The translations under genes and the position numbers were made by a program. A DNA stretch of 49,905 nucleotides from contig LXFE01004239.1 in NCBI GenBank assembly GCA_001929475.1, forward strand, positions 1 through 49,905, in the 5' to 3' direction. Below the pieces are notes generated by a model. The model was not told where the DNA came from and did not search any database. It was given only the letters and a program-made list of their open reading frames with translations. Positions 196 to 27,187 of the stretch are shown piece after piece; the first letter of the stretch is position 1; each line of letters begins with the position of its first letter. This stretch comes from Neolecta irregularis DAH-3. Lineage: Eukaryota.

Positions 196-616
196 NNNNN
201 NNNNNAGGGCATAGCTTGGCTCGTGCCACTGAACCGCTCATGCATCTCTGAAACATTCTACTTCCACCAATCCAGAGCCCTCTGAATCATGTTCCACTGG
301 TTTCATATCATGCCCACCTCGCATCCATCAAGAATCTCCTTTCAAAACTACGTCAAGCGCCATTGGGCCCAGAGCTGTGTTGAATCAACGCTCGCAATCA
401 AGACAAGTAATCCCCAATGTTTGCAATCGTTCTTTTTCTAAACTGCGTCCCAGCAACCGGCGACCCAACATTGCTGAACAGGATCAGTGGCTGATGTCTC
501 AGAGGAGCGTTAGATCAGACAATGGACTTAAGTTTCGCCGGATCTGTGTTACGTCCGAAAAATGCGTTTATAAAAGCGGCCATCTTTCCTCTTCTCGCTA
601 ATCACCTTCATCTTTC

Positions 617-1753
617 ATGTTGTCAGCACCTTTTATCGTTCTCCTCGGTCTCGTTGCAGCTCTGCCAGTCTTGGACCCTGAAAACATCCAAAGCCCAGAT
701 GCACTAAAGGATACCCAGAATACACCCACGACTACTGAGATGCCCCCCCAAATGACTGGCGCAATGACGTCAACCCAGATATTAGAGGACTCTTTCCCTA
801 ACCAGAAATCTCCGTCAGCGTGGAAAACCCCAGATTCACAGTCGACAATCAAGGAACCAAACACGCGAGTGATTCTCCCCAAGTTTGTGTATGCCCCGAA
901 TTATAAGACTCCAAACACTCGAGCGATTGGCCTCCAGGTTGTATCTGCCACGAATCCAAAGGCATTCTATTATCCTAGTGATCCTTATGGGTATCATAAT
1001 AGTGGTCGGCAGATTACAGAGGAATACGTTCCGAAACCCCATCCCGACTATAAAGCCCCCGACTATGAACAGTACCATGCCGAAGAAAACATGGGAAAAG
1101 ACTTTGATAATGGCAATTGTGTTGACAATCCGCCATTGTCAGACAATGATATTAAGCCCTTTGATGATGACAATTGTGCAAAAATTACGCTATTGTCAGA
1201 AGCCGAACAGGTAGAGATGGCAAACAAGGTCCTAGCAGATCGGCAAGCGCGGAAGAAGGAGTTTGACGAGGCCAAGAATGATAAAGAGAAGCGGCTAATT
1301 GTCGCCAAGGCCCTAGACGCATGCGCGGAACTCAAGGGCTGGGTTGTCAAGGCTTGTGCTGCGACAGTATACGATTATGCTAGTGATTACATACCCAACC
1401 TGGATGTGGTAACGACTTACGTTTCACCGTTTGCGGCTGTTGCTGGTGCAGTGATTTCCAATGAAGTCGACGATCGCCTCCAGAATTATGCTCGAACGGC
1501 CGTTGATCTAGAAGGTTCGGACGCGACTATAACCGATATTCTTACCGCCAAACTTTCCCGCCCAAACAAGGCATCCTCAGGAGAGTCTAGTGAAAAGACA
1601 GAAAAAGAGCAGGGTTCCGACAAGAAACCATCATCCTCAGGAGAGTCTAGTAAAAAGACAGAAAAAGAGCAGGATTCAGTCAAGAAACCATCGTCCTCAG
1701 GAGAGTCTAGTAAAAAGACAGAAAAAGAGCAGGATCCAGGCAAGAAACAATGA
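617..1753 (+). CDS. Lineage-specific secreted protein with C-terminal 20-aa tandem repeats (candidate effector)
   Basis: Intronless 378-aa ORF with signal-peptide-like MLSAPFIVLLGLVAALP. TATAAAA lies about 45 nt upstream. No recognisable domain. Confidence 0.7.
   Translation: MLSAPFIVLLGLVAALPVLDPENIQSPDALKDTQNTPTTTEMPPQMTGAMTSTQILEDSFPNQKSPSAWKTPDSQSTIKEPNTRVILPKFVYAPNYKTPNTRAIGLQVVSATNPKAFYYPSDPYGYHNSGRQITEEYVPKPHPDYKAPDYEQYHAEENMGKDFDNGNCVDNPPLSDNDIKPFDDDNCAKITLLSEAEQVEMANKVLADRQARKKEFDEAKNDKEKRLIVAKALDACAELKGWVVKACAATVYDYASDYIPNLDVVTTYVSPFAAVAGAVISNEVDDRLQNYARTAVDLEGSDATITDILTAKLSRPNKASSGESSEKTEKEQGSDKKPSSSGESSKKTEKEQDSVKKPSSSGESSKKTEKEQDPGKKQ
1561..1750 (+). repeat. 60-bp coding tandem repeat, about 3 copies (KKPSSSGESSKKTEKEQxxx)
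   Basis: Lines 1561, 1621 and 1681 align at period 60 (TCCTCAGGAGAGTCTAGT.AAAAGACAGAAAAAGAGCAGG). Confidence 0.95.
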
Positions 1754-2295
1754 TGAAATCTAGACGAAATTTCGATCGGATCAGGAGTGGTAAATTTGAA
1801 ACTTTTATGTAAATGTACAATGAAATGGTCTTAAACGCGTTTTGCCCTTCATAACGAATCCTTCCTTAGGCCCCTCTCAGTCTCCCGCCCTCCTCGTCGC
1901 TATTCTCAGCTTCTCCAGAAAGGTGATCTTCAATGCGACTTTGCGGAATACTCAAGTAGCGCTATATTCAATTATATGTGGTTGAAATAAAGTGTGTAGC
2001 CTGAGTAGCGAAAAAGTCTGTGTGCTATGTGGCTATCCACTTCACTGACACAGTGCCCAACAATCATCCATGCGCTCCCGCGTTGTGGTATGACAAGGCC
2101 AGCCTGCCCTCTTCCCTCGCTTGCACTCCGCACTCCCGCCGGCGCCTCCACCACCGTCACCGACCGCCGCCGCCCATAACCCGCCAGAGCCGCCTACAAC
2201 GCCAACATCCTCGTCTCAGACACCCCCTCCCAGTACTCGACCAGTTCCCCCTGCATCTCCTCCGCATTGCTGCTCTGGTCACCCACCCGCGAGTA

Positions 2296-2432
2296 AGTAA
2301 AAGTCCCACCGGCGGTGACCGCAGGGAACTTTCAGTGAAAACTCCACCTTTTTCGGAACTTGCAGTGAAAATCCCACCGTTTTGGAATTTACAGTAAAAG
2401 TTCCGGAACTTACAGTAAAAGTTCTGTCACCG
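2296..2432. repeat. Array of 4-5 short units GGAA(C/T)TT.CAGT(G/A)AAA.(C/T).CC, resembling DNA-transposon subterminal repeats
   Basis: Units start at about 2325, 2355, 2384 and 2405. They are bracketed by CGGTGAC (2313) and GTCACCG (ending 2432). Confidence 0.65.
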
Positions 2433-4695
2433 TTCACTACTCTCTCTCCACAATTCCACCTTCCGCTCCCCCTCCCCTGCCACCTACCGCATCACCCTCT
2501 CGCCGCCTTGCCCGCTCGCTCCCTTGCTCCCTTTCACCGCGTCGCCCATGCTCTCCCTCACTCCCTCTCGCCACCTTGACCACATGCTCCCTCGCTCCTT
2601 CTCTCTCAATCCCGCTGCTGGTCCTCACCGCAGACTCTGCCGCCGAGCCTAGCAAGTCGCCATTACCACCGCTGCCCTGTTCCGCTGGCTGTACTCGCAC
2701 TGGCCGCTCAGCCCTCAGGCATCCGCGTCGGCACTCAGCCCGCCTGTCGCCGCTGTACTGGCAGGCAAGCTTTGCACCGTGGCGGCCAATCTGGCACTGT
2801 TGATCCGCCGTTCTTACATCTACGATCTCAGATGGGGCACTCGGAGTGTTTTGCATTGGCACAGCTGCTGCGACAAAGCAAGTCCCGCGAGCATCTCCAA
2901 CCCACCGCCAGGCCTTGCCGCAGACTTCGCCACCGAGCTCGGCAAGTCCGCGCGCCTGCCGCTGTAGTCGCCGCCGTGCTGGAAGGCCAGCTTTGCATCA
3001 TGTCTGCCGATCTGGTGTGGTCGATCCACCGCGAGATGAAGAGCATTACGATAGCCTTGTGTTTGATGTCGTTGGTGTCAAATTCAAGACTACTAGTACT
3101 TTATCTGTACGATTATTACAAAAGGAACTCGAAACGCAATTCATTTCTTCGCAAGATTCTGAATCAGAGGAGGAAGAGCATGTCGTTTGTCACATTGATG
3201 ATGAACAAAACTTACAAGGACAAAGCGATGCAATCAGATAACTCAGAGTACTCTTTTTCCCAGGTTTATACTTACTCTCAGGAACGACGAGAATTGAGAG
3301 CTATCCTGGGACAAAAGGACGAGAGTAGTATTACAAAGATCATAGCCGTTGGAAAGAAAGGTCACAGGAGATCGGAATATGAGAATCATTGCCTTCGCTG
3401 CAGCCCGCTGTCAGTCAGCTATTGCCCGCTGTCAATCAACCGCATCCCGCAGTCAGTCAAACCCCGCCAGCAGTCAATCACCACCATCCATCAAGGCTGT
3501 TGTCGCCCCGCTCGACTCTCTGCGGCTGCTGTGGATGGTGCGCTACCTGCGCAAAGTCTTATGGCTGGGCAGTCTGTCGCCCCTACTTCGCACCAAACTC
3601 ATCGATGACCTCTACCAACCCGCGCTCTACAACCTCTTATTCTACTTGCACTGTCCCTCCCCGCGTCTGGGCACCCTCAAACATATTCGCGTCTCCACAG
3701 AGCTAGATTCCTTCATCGCATAGGGCGAGGAATTAATTTTCTGTGTTAATGATCCAGTGAAGATAAAATACTACCCGAGAACTGAGCATAAATGGTTAGT
3801 CTGATTAATAGAAAACTATAATCTTCCCTCGCCTGCCTCACCGACTTGTTTCATCTGACTCCCCTGTCTGTAGGCTCGCTGCTCCCAGACCCGCCTCCTC
3901 TGGCCCCTCTGCAGAAACACCTGGGGCACCTGCACCAGCACCAGCATGATTTGTGTCTCAAAAGAGGCGCTTCTTTCGGCAGACCTTGACCTGAAGTGTC
4001 CCCCTTTTTATCTCCCTTCTCACCGCTAGATACCTCTTTCGCTCACGAATCCCCACCTTATATCCCTTCCTTTGACACACAATCACTAGTGTTCGCTCTG
4101 CCGTCTTATGAGCTCTCCCATTCTCTGTCGTCGTACAGAAATTTTAATTTTTATGCAACGCAGATTCATGATGTCGCAATAACAGTATCTGACCTTTACG
4201 TAATTGGAAGAGAAAGAAGTGGACACTAGGTCAAATGAAAATATCCAGAGAAAAAAAGAAGAAATCATTTGAGTGTTTTGCGAAACATGGGTAATAAAAA
4301 ACCTGATATTTGAAGTTCTTCTTAGTAGGTCGATAAAAAGGTGATAATGTGAATACAGGCTTGAATATTTAAGAATTCCCACTTGCAAAGAAGCACTGCA
4401 CGCAGCTAATGCATTAGTGTGGAAGTTCTTTACTTTGACTGTTGGCAGTCTGCATGGAGACTAGCTTAAGAGATGACCCTGGCTAATATTACTAAACATT
4501 CGTGCTAGATCATTCGGTTGAAGTGTAAACAAGATCACGAATAACTGCGAGAACCGTTCTGATTCCTGTTAGATCACGCTATCAAAAGTGGGGTCGCATG
4601 ACAAAGGGCTTGACTTAGGCTATTCCCAGTTGCCTTTAAAGAGAGGATAGCCCGAATCTTCAGAAGATCGTACAATACAAAGCAATCAAATTCCA

Positions 4696-25460: not shown

Positions 25461-27187
25461 ATGCATCGTATTTTGTCAGAGGCGCATCTTCGATCAAGAA
25501 ATCCAGCAATATCTAGGGGGATCTTGTCTGGGCTTCCTTCTCAACTGGGAGGTATAGGATTCGATCAAGAAACTGGATCAGCTCCCTCTGATGTCCCCCT
25601 TCCAGAGATACCTCAAGGAGCTTCACGGCAGGGAACTGATACTTCGGGGCATTCGATATCTAGACCGCGTACTTCAAAAAAGATCACACCTCCGAACCGA
25701 ACTGTCGTTAATGGGCCAATTCAGATGCTCAGATTTATCCTATTGAGCAACTATGCGAATCCCCTTCTTATTTTTGTGCCAATTGGAATTGCACTTCACT
25801 TTACCAATGTGAGCGCATCAGTTATCTTTGTGATGAACTTTTTGGCCATCATACCGCTTGCGGCGCTATTGTCTCTTGCTACTGGTAAGATTATTGCTTT
25901 TTATCAAATTAACGTATCAGAGGGGAAGCTCTATATTGCTAGTACGTACTAATCATGCAGAGGGTGTGTTAATCTCTCTTTGATTAGAATGCTAATAGCG
26001 CAGTCAGCATCAAGGTTGTAGACAAAAAAACAGCAGTAATCCATTGCAATCTAATATGTTAGGTCGGGCAAACTCTCGGCGGATTAATGAATGCAACTTT
26101 CGGAAATGCGTATTCAATTTCATAGGTCAGAACTGAAAAATTAGCGTCGAATTGATTGTCTCGATTATCGCACTGGTGAAGGGTGAAATCGGTATTGTTC
26201 AAGCGTCTCTTCTTGGATCAATGTTGTCCAATTTGTTGCTCGTTCTCGGTATGGCTTTCTTCTTTGGAGGACTCAAGTAAGCTTTCTAAACCTTGTCAAC
26301 TCTAACTGATAGAAAACCGGAACAAAAGTTCAACATGACGGTAGCTCAGACTAGTTCTTCACTTTTAACGATCTCCATCATCTCGCTCCTCATCCCGGCT
26401 GCCTTCCATTTTTCAGTTCCAGATTCCGATCACGGTGTCTCACAAATATCAAGAGCAGTCAGTATACTTTTGCTGATCACGTATAGCATTTACCTGTGGT
26501 TTCAGGTTTGTTCCACGTCGGTTGCTGGCGCTTACTGCAAGCTAAAATCCCATGCTTATCTTTACGATGTTAGCGAAGAATATGAAATAGAAGAGCACGC
26601 TACTTTGCCTGTTTCTATCGCGGTACTCGTATTGATTGTCGTCACGGTTTTGGTTGCTGTTTGTGCCGAATTTCTCGTTGCTTCTATAGATTCATTAGTT
26701 TCGAACTCCAGCATCAATAGAAAGTTTGTTGGGCTGATATTACTACCTATTGTAGGGAATGCGGCAGAACATGTTACTGCAGTTACTCTCGCTATAAAAG
26801 ATAAGGTTTTCCATATCTGCAACGATACTTTCGCTCATTAATAGGTTGACTTGTCAATCGCTGTTGCGGTTGGAAGTTCTGCGCAGGTTTCATTGTTAGT
26901 AACGCCTTTAATGGTCATTCTTGGTTGGATCATTGGGAAAGACATGGTAGCTCGACCTTTTATTCAAGGGGCTCAATTGCAGACTCTTTTCTTCGACCCA
27001 TTTCAAACCGTTGTCCTTTTCGCTTCCATTTTACTGGTTAATTATATCATTCAGGATGGCAAAAGTAATTATTTGGAAGGCTCTATGTTGGTCACGGCTT
27101 ATATTATCATCGCGTATGTAAGATTGAGTGGCCAGTTTGCTGACTTTTAGCATCGCTGTTTGGTACTACCCCAAGGATTCGTCATAG
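25461..27187 (+). CDS. VCX1: Vacuolar Ca2+/H+ exchanger (CAX family), multi-exon with micro-exons
   Basis: [54 protein letters not shown] and DGKSNYLEG. Start codon is tentative. Confidence 0.9.

Follow-up and report, generated by a model that had tools for sequence, protein, structure and literature searches.

How the coding sequence crosses a stretch of 178 nt (25885-26062) is the question raised by the CAX/VCX1 calcium/proton exchanger gene that lies on the plus strand of contig LXFE01004239.1 of Neolecta irregularis DAH-3 (assembly GCA_001929475.1), its identity being assigned by sequence similarity. The analysis covered a stretch of 49,905 nt of this contig, hereafter the window. On comparative and splice-signal grounds, the best-supported reading is that two 3-nt exons and an 11-nt exon are embedded in the 178 nt, a model that we regard as well supported but unproven. 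The stretch is thus probably made up of four ultra-short introns (36, 37, 40 and 48 nt) separated by AGG, AGG and the 11-nt exon, and their removal would yield an exchanger of 448 aa. The actual splicing, its order and the use of a GG dinucleotide as the 5' splice site of the second intron are what we infer from this model.

Over its first 141 codons, the gene matches with 100% identity a deposited protein recovered by protein search (P0001, 'Vacuolar calcium ion transporter [Neolecta irregularis DAH-3]'). P0001 scores 369.4 bits against the CAX equivalog model TIGR00378, above its cutoff of 211.15, and 338.5 bits against TIGR00846 (cutoff 317.45), while PF01699 (Na_Ca_ex) matches it in two stretches with 148 bits, i.e., the protein carries both repeats. 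The stretches GNAVE and GNAAEH, which we take to be the signatures of the two Na_Ca_ex repeats, both occur in the 448-aa model, and the homologs show no variation in them. The best solved relative of P0001 is yeast VCX1 (PDB identifier 4K1C; E-value 1.5e-104). Judged by sequence, the gene product is a CAX-type exchanger, for which Ca2+/H+ antiport and a vacuolar location are predicted from the similarity to yeast VCX1. Searches for transcript-derived proteins of the species gave P0001 as the sole 100% match among proteins of 248-2000 aa, while the best match among those of 77-247 aa covered 36% of the query at 67% identity. Rfam gave no family match within the window.

Joining the exons by their coordinates (Table 1) gives the peptide A-T-E-E-V-S-I-K-V-G-Q-T-L-G-G, and the resulting 448-aa model aligns with homologs without gaps through the conserved core. 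An initial annotation had proposed the four intron-like segments, the two AGG units and the 11-nt exon, and our reconstruction agrees with it base for base. The branch-like motif and 3' AG that it described are found in all four segments, and the second intron does start with GGAAGC, the assembly having a G at 25925.

Table 1. Exons and introns of the CAX/VCX1 gene of N. irregularis in the two-micro-exon model (positions are those of the window)
Feature	Position	Strand	Observations
Exon 1	25461..25884	+	ATG at 25461; ends ...GCT ACT G, phase 1; open frame, matches P0001 residues 1-141
Intron 1, 36 nt	25885..25920	+	GTAAGA...TTAACGTATCAG; TTAAC with A at -9; CAG end; in top-ranked splice path
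Micro-exon 1, AGG	25921..25923	+	Completes first Glu codon and starts second; needed for second Glu
Intron 2, 37 nt	25924..25960	+	GGAAGC...CTAATCATGCAG; CTAAT with A at -9; CAG end; assembly G at +2 (25925)
Micro-exon 2, AGG	25961..25963	+	Between CAG and GTGTGT
Intron 3, 40 nt	25964..26003	+	GTGTGT...CTAATAGCGCAG; CTAAT with A at -9; CAG end
11-nt exon, TCAGCATCAAG	26004..26014	+	14-nt form to 26017 (deposited model) scores lower
Intron 4, 48 nt	26015..26062	+	GTTGTA...CTAATATGTTAG; CTAAT with A at -9; TAG end
Exon	26063..26109	+	Starts GTCGGGCAA; frame resumes at GTCGGG
Intron 5, 35 nt	26110..26144	+	Homolog alignment gapless over junction
Exon (...GGLK)	26145..26276	+	Splice-model rebuild
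Intron 6, 36 nt	26277..26312	+	GTAAGC...CTAAC...TAG
Exon	26313..26505	+	Splice-model rebuild
Intron 7, 36 nt	26506..26541	+	In frame, stop-free; kept as 12 extra residues in deposited protein
Exon with GNAAEH of second repeat	26542..26805	+	Splice-model rebuild
Intron 8, 39 nt	26806..26844	+	Splice-model rebuild; long-ORF junctions
Exon	26845..26946	+	Splice-model rebuild
Intron 9, 36 nt	26947..26982	+	Splice-model rebuild
Exon	26983..27113	+	Splice-model rebuild
Intron 10, 37 nt	27114..27150	+	GTATGT...CTGAC...TAG
Last exon	27151..27187	+	Stop TAG at 27185-27187; whole CDS = 448 aa

The homolog set comprised 42 of the 48 other proteins recovered by the search, six with lengths beyond the limits of 380-620 aa having been excluded. 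All 42 are free of gaps throughout the stretch NFLAIIPLA...ATEE[IL][AS]xxxGxTLGG, in which the Thr, the first Glu and the Gly are invariant (42/42 each) and the second Glu is present in 41/42 (Gln in the remaining one). The peptide ATEEVSIKVGQ, which is obtained when both micro-exons are used, is compatible with all 42 gapless homologs. In the AlphaFold model of one of the homologs (P0002), ATEE lies within one continuous helix (residues 153-182) that ends at the invariant Gly, with pLDDT values of 87-95 over this block, and an insertion or deletion at ATEE would, on this model, shift the register of the helix. A metagenome scan for related loci returned five, none of which is close; in the metagenomic loci L001 and L002 (51-58% identical) the motif is contained within one exon.

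We enumerated all in-frame and stop-free splice paths with donors and acceptors within 25860-26075 and with up to five introns of 25-250 nt, and scored the encoded peptides by a HMM of the homologs. With GG donors allowed, this gave 13,516 peptides, among which the path with both micro-exons ranks first with 105.7 bits; with GT and GC donors only, 5,363 distinct peptides were obtained, the top one scoring 101.5 bits with the same enumeration HMM. The latter path is implausible: it uses exons of 5 nt and 1 nt, relies on a GC donor of poor quality and disrupts the invariant T-E. When whole proteins were rebuilt and scored with a local HMM, the two-micro-exon model obtained 122.5 bits, the best canonical model 118.4 bits and the models with one Glu 112.9 bits, the gaps between models depending on one or two residues.

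The splice signals point to the same arrangement. All ten introns of the gene, including the four in the 178 nt, end in AG and carry a [CT]TNA motif with its A at -8 or -9, and nine of the ten start with GT. The 5' GT or GC of U2-type introns is found at 25885, 25964 and 26015, whereas 25924 has GG in the assembly. In length, the four also behave as U2-type introns of this gene, the other six being of 35, 36, 36, 39, 36 and 37 nt (35-48 nt over all ten). Elsewhere in the window, the shortest motif-bearing GT-AG candidates at the junctions of long same-strand ORFs are mostly of 32-41 nt (38, 37, 36, 34, 39, 32, 40, 39 and 41 nt), with a few longer or ambiguous ones (55-56 and 70 nt); this window-wide set derives from ORF junctions and is predicted rather than transcript-defined, and filters on the ORF flanks were discarded as too noisy at the GC content of the window. 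A histogram of the distances from GT to the 3' signal, which is independent of ORFs, has an excess at 32-37 nt only (185 pairs, compared with about 141 predicted from the background at 100-200 nt), and no excess at 32-37 nt is seen with the control starts GG, GC, GA, TG and CT. Introns 3 and 4 exceed this peak in length. N. irregularis is reported to be intron-rich, with 4,202 introns in 1,211 ortholog alignments; the passages on Neolecta that were consulted contain nothing on intron size.

The introns of the window are thus ultra-short, with little spread in size. An undivided intron of 76 nt (25885-25960) would be about twice as long as the norm. Such an intron would be required if the GG site were dead and 25884 were joined directly to the second AGG, giving ATEVSIKVGQ... 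and a protein of 447 aa; the first 3' signal, the first AGG and GGAAGC would then be what is left of a recently lost micro-exon. This would leave the gene with GT-AG introns throughout and with its frame kept, the remainder of the gene being intact, and would agree with the great rarity of G at +2 among working donors in a Ganoderma lingzhi annotation. We nevertheless consider it unlikely, given not only the unusual length of the intron but also that the one-Glu model falls 9.6 bits short of the two-Glu model, that none of the 42 homologs has an indel here and that the residue that would be lost lies in the middle of the confidently modelled helix of P0002. Moreover, the signals of the supposed relic are all intact, so that the micro-exon could only have been lost very recently. 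That they arose by chance is improbable: in 200,000 shuffles of the interior of the 76 nt, with composition kept, an internal 3' signal together with a Glu-compatible 3-nt exon and G-N-A-A-G was found in 3 (9 with a looser donor rule), compared to 29,924 with the 3' signal alone.

A second control addressed the 178 nt as a whole, which were shuffled with the GT and AG ends kept and then tested for a splice path that restores the pattern E-E-[ILV]-[AS]-x-[KRYEHNQ] in a peptide of correct length. Restoration was seen in 2/3000 shuffles under loose rules and in 0/3000 with GT and GC donors only, as well as in 0/3000 under strict rules (introns of 30-60 nt with a branch motif). In the real 178 nt, the path with both AGG exons is the only one that restores the pattern, and no path confined to GT and GC donors does so. 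Thus, the shuffle controls suggest that the arrangement is a genuine series of introns and micro-exons, in use now or very recently. As for its origin, a tandem duplication of two units of intron plus AGG was considered and rejected, the intron interiors being unlike (z of 0.99 for the two units, within a range of -1.3 to 1.4 over all pairs).

It is on this pattern that an arrangement made up of GT-AG introns only and encoding a protein of the same length also falls short. Here, the 76-nt intron would be followed by one AGG and by a 14-nt exon (26004-26017) with a GTAGAC donor at 26018, and the product (ATEVSIKVVGQ, 448 aa) would match the homologs in length; the donor at 26018 is, moreover, used by the deposited model too. 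Its local HMM score of 108.6 bits is, however, 13.9 bits under that of the two-Glu model, the Glu of 41/42 homologs is replaced and all later residues are off the conserved register, while the internal signals of the 76-nt stretch are left unexplained. We hold this arrangement to be highly improbable.

The deposited protein itself reads ATE-GKLYIA-ISIKVV-GQTLGG in this region, a reading produced by an exon of 21 nt (25921-25941), an intron of 62 nt (25942-26003), the same 14-nt exon and an intron of 45 nt, and amounting to 454 aa when rebuilt from this splice arrangement. Its introns are canonical GT-AG introns and it comes from a pipeline that had RNA-seq: the depositors reported RNA support for 99.4% of genes, and Nguyen et al. 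(2017) place the methods for sequencing, RNA-seq and annotation in supplements. That the model of the depositors differs from ours in spite of their RNA-seq is a counterpoint to the two-micro-exon model. Yet the deposited arrangement scores the lowest of eight models (105.1 bits, 17.4 under the two-Glu model), and its six inserted residues are present neither in any of the 42 homologs nor in yeast VCX1, against which they are left unaligned. Nor is the deposited protein accurate at junctions elsewhere. Another insert of 12 residues, which brings it to 466 aa, is present in no homolog, P0002, P0003 and P0006 included, and aligns poorly with yeast VCX1, and the 36 nt that encode it (26506-26541) start with GT, contain a branch-like CTTAC and end in AG, in frame and without a stop. 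This insert is apparently a retained intron. That the deposited splicing of the 178 nt is right appears barely credible to us; the public protein is wrong in two places, with six spurious residues in one and twelve from the retained intron in the other. Common aligners are not known to place 3-nt exons or GG donors. Similar annotation errors probably affect further genes of this intron-rich genome, on which many comparative studies of fungal multicellularity and of intron evolution draw.

The two-micro-exon model leaves the nature of the donor at 25924 as a separate matter. Leaving +2 aside, GGAAGC is one of the gene's best donors: its AAG at +3 to +5 is identical to that of GTAAGA and GTAAGC, and none of the ten introns has a better donor match there. 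In GC-AG donors, a strong match elsewhere in the donor is a known compensation, and the strong +3 to +5 match of intron 2 resembles it. Intron 2 may be a true GG-AG intron that is used with the help of this AAG, an interpretation that we offer tentatively and with some doubt. Somewhat less probable, in our estimate, is that 25925 is a T in the organism or in most of its nuclei and that the G represents an assembly error or a minor allele, in which case intron 2 would be an ordinary GTAAGC intron, identical at its donor to intron 6 of the same gene. The base comes after a run of G, and the DNA was derived from field-collected fruiting bodies and yielded a fragmented assembly (N50 of 16 kb); on the other hand, the 199-fold coverage makes a substitution error in the consensus unlikely. 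The micro-exons would be real with a T as well, so that this possibility is a sub-case of the best explanation and is not exclusive of it: a working GG-AG intron and a T in the organism lead to the same mRNA.

The initial annotation had gone further and proposed that skipping of an AGG might tune the transporter by one residue. Dropping one AGG does keep the frame in the rebuilt protein models, but the Glu that is affected does not lie just before the GNxxE stretch, as had been stated; it is placed about 19-20 residues upstream of GNAVE, inside the preceding helix. A regulated use of the AGG exons, producing one-Glu and two-Glu isoforms that tune transport, could build on such frame-neutral skipping and on partial inclusion caused by a weak GG donor. 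It is very unlikely in view of the invariant length of this segment in 42/42 homologs and of its predicted position within a helix. Since this helix is predicted to be continuous and none of the 42 homologs has an indel in it, the one-Glu form looks more like a defective or impaired product than like a regulated, tuned isoform. Of the original proposal, the tandem micro-exons are thus retained as the best-supported model, backed by homologs, splice signals and shuffles, and the GG donor as a doubtful possibility, whereas the functional tuning finds no support.

With both micro-exons included, splicing of the 178 nt could proceed as follows. If introns are of about 32-41 nt throughout the genome, each may be recognised as a unit (intron definition) by its 5' site and by a branch A located 8-9 nt from the 3' AG. 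A 3-nt exon would offer no room for spliceosomes on both of its sides simultaneously, and the four introns would hence be removed one after another. The order would most simply be 5' to 3', during transcription, the upstream exon being enlarged by each ligation ahead of the use of the next 5' site. The stronger proposition, namely that a GG-AG intron is spliced efficiently between consecutive one-codon exons and near-minimum-length introns, in an obligatory order of all four, which lie 3, 3 and 11 nt apart, is a possibility that we put forward with reservation. If it is true, the spliceosome of Neolecta tolerates a G at +2 provided that +3 to +5 match the consensus, and the locus would offer a small natural substrate on which ordered splicing by intron definition, and how short an exon can be, could be studied.

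Among known systems, the encoded protein is closest to yeast VCX1 and the CAX family (PDB identifier 4K1C; TIGR00378), with which it shares a full-length match over the curated cutoffs, two Na_Ca_ex repeats and, with yeast VCX1, an identical spacing of ATEE...G...GNAVE. It differs in that the Neolecta gene has ten introns in about 1.7 kb and in that its N-terminal 100 residues are unconserved, and the VCX1 label is used here at the level of the family.

With respect to the donor, GG-AG introns are very rare, accounting for 20 of about 92,100 introns (0.022%) in the long-read annotation of Ganoderma lingzhi. The string 'GG-AG' is absent from the main text of Frey and Pucker (2020). Another non-GT donor in fungi, GAAAGA, is described for bioDA of Batrachochytrium. 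Intron 2 of the Neolecta gene resembles the GG-AG introns in having a G at +2 and a normal AG acceptor. It differs from them in being a candidate predicted from the assembly and in that its donor directly follows a 3-nt exon, so that the micro-exon itself makes up the entire exonic side of the 5' splice site. A real GG donor here would be a well-defined case of a very rare splice-site class, anchored by a conserved protein.

The arrangement also recalls [D1,2] stwintrons, which are likewise unconventional arrangements of nested or adjacent fungal introns that need ordered splicing. In a [D1,2] stwintron, however, the internal intron splits the G and T of the outer donor, whereas the G at 25924 is followed by G and A. 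We rejected a stwintron at this position: with GA at 25925-25926, there is neither a start for an internal GT intron nor a GT donor that its removal would restore.

The closest counterparts are the fungal micro-exons of 3 nt and less. In the long-read annotation of Coprinopsis cinerea, 26 genes together contain 27 exons of 3 nt, and the lipS genes of Dactylellina haptotyla contain two 3-nt exons each. Like those, the Neolecta exons are single-codon internal exons with ordinary short flanking introns, are overlooked by gene predictors and, when omitted, break or distort the gene model. They differ from those in that two 3-nt exons occur directly in series, with an 11-nt exon after them, within 178 nt, in that the flanking introns are of only 36-48 nt and in that omission gives no stop and alters a conserved helix by one residue. 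The C. cinerea micro-exons are, in addition, transcript-supported, whereas those of Neolecta are predicted from the genome sequence. A search of a limited literature collection found nothing on micro-exons or GG donors in Neolecta, nor on two 3-nt exons in series. The locus is no new kind of system, since fungal examples of both 3-nt exons and GG-AG introns have been described before; it provides an annotation correction, further fungal micro-exons and a possible GG-AG intron. A series of two exons of one codon each, set between introns of about 37 nt, would represent an extreme miniaturisation of exons and introns alike, and would imply strictly sequential splicing.

The introns of the window appear to be ultra-short and confined to a narrow size range. 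Distances from GT to a 3' signal, taken over the whole window on both strands, form a sole peak at 32-37 nt, and most of the junction introns in the window measure 32-41 nt, with a branch-like A lying 8-11 nt before the 3' AG. At two long-ORF junctions, 579-626 (+) and 28325-28275 (-), the sole short motif-bearing candidates begin with GC and not GT, and in each case the flanking ORFs may or may not be parts of one gene. We also note that positions 2001-4000 have a GC content of 0.549, markedly above the 0.41-0.49 seen elsewhere in the window, a GC skew of -0.23, strongly negative relative to the remaining window, and numerous overlapping long ORFs on both strands.

The deposited Neolecta irregularis DAH-3 vacuolar calcium ion transporter (P0001) carries 12 additional residues, absent from its homologs, that are encoded by the seventh of the ten introns of the rebuilt gene. 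This retention is a second annotation error within the same VCX1 gene. The annotation of this genome may often keep introns that stay in frame, and may often overlook micro-exons.

Features of the Neolecta CAX gene and its relatives
Feature	Location	Strand	Description
Intron kept in P0001	window 26506-26541	+	36 nt, in-frame, stop-free, GTTTGT...CTTAC...AAG
Fungal CAX gene	L001 3001-4220		metagenome-assembly contig; same gene as L002
Fungal CAX gene	L002 3001-4220		metagenome-assembly contig; same gene as L001

Outside Neolecta irregularis, the protein most closely related to that of Neolecta is the Logan-derived P0002, which over a 34-residue stretch is nearly identical to the two-Glu model of the initial annotation, the one that includes two AGG micro-exons. 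Because its 486 aa are encoded on a contig of 1627 nt, an intron-free transcript is suggested as its source. The two metagenomic CAX genes are mutually identical and share 51-58% identity with the Neolecta protein. In them the ATEELSVKLGQTLGG motif lies undivided within one exon, and their intron, which follows ...GNAVELIV, matches in position no Neolecta intron of this gene.
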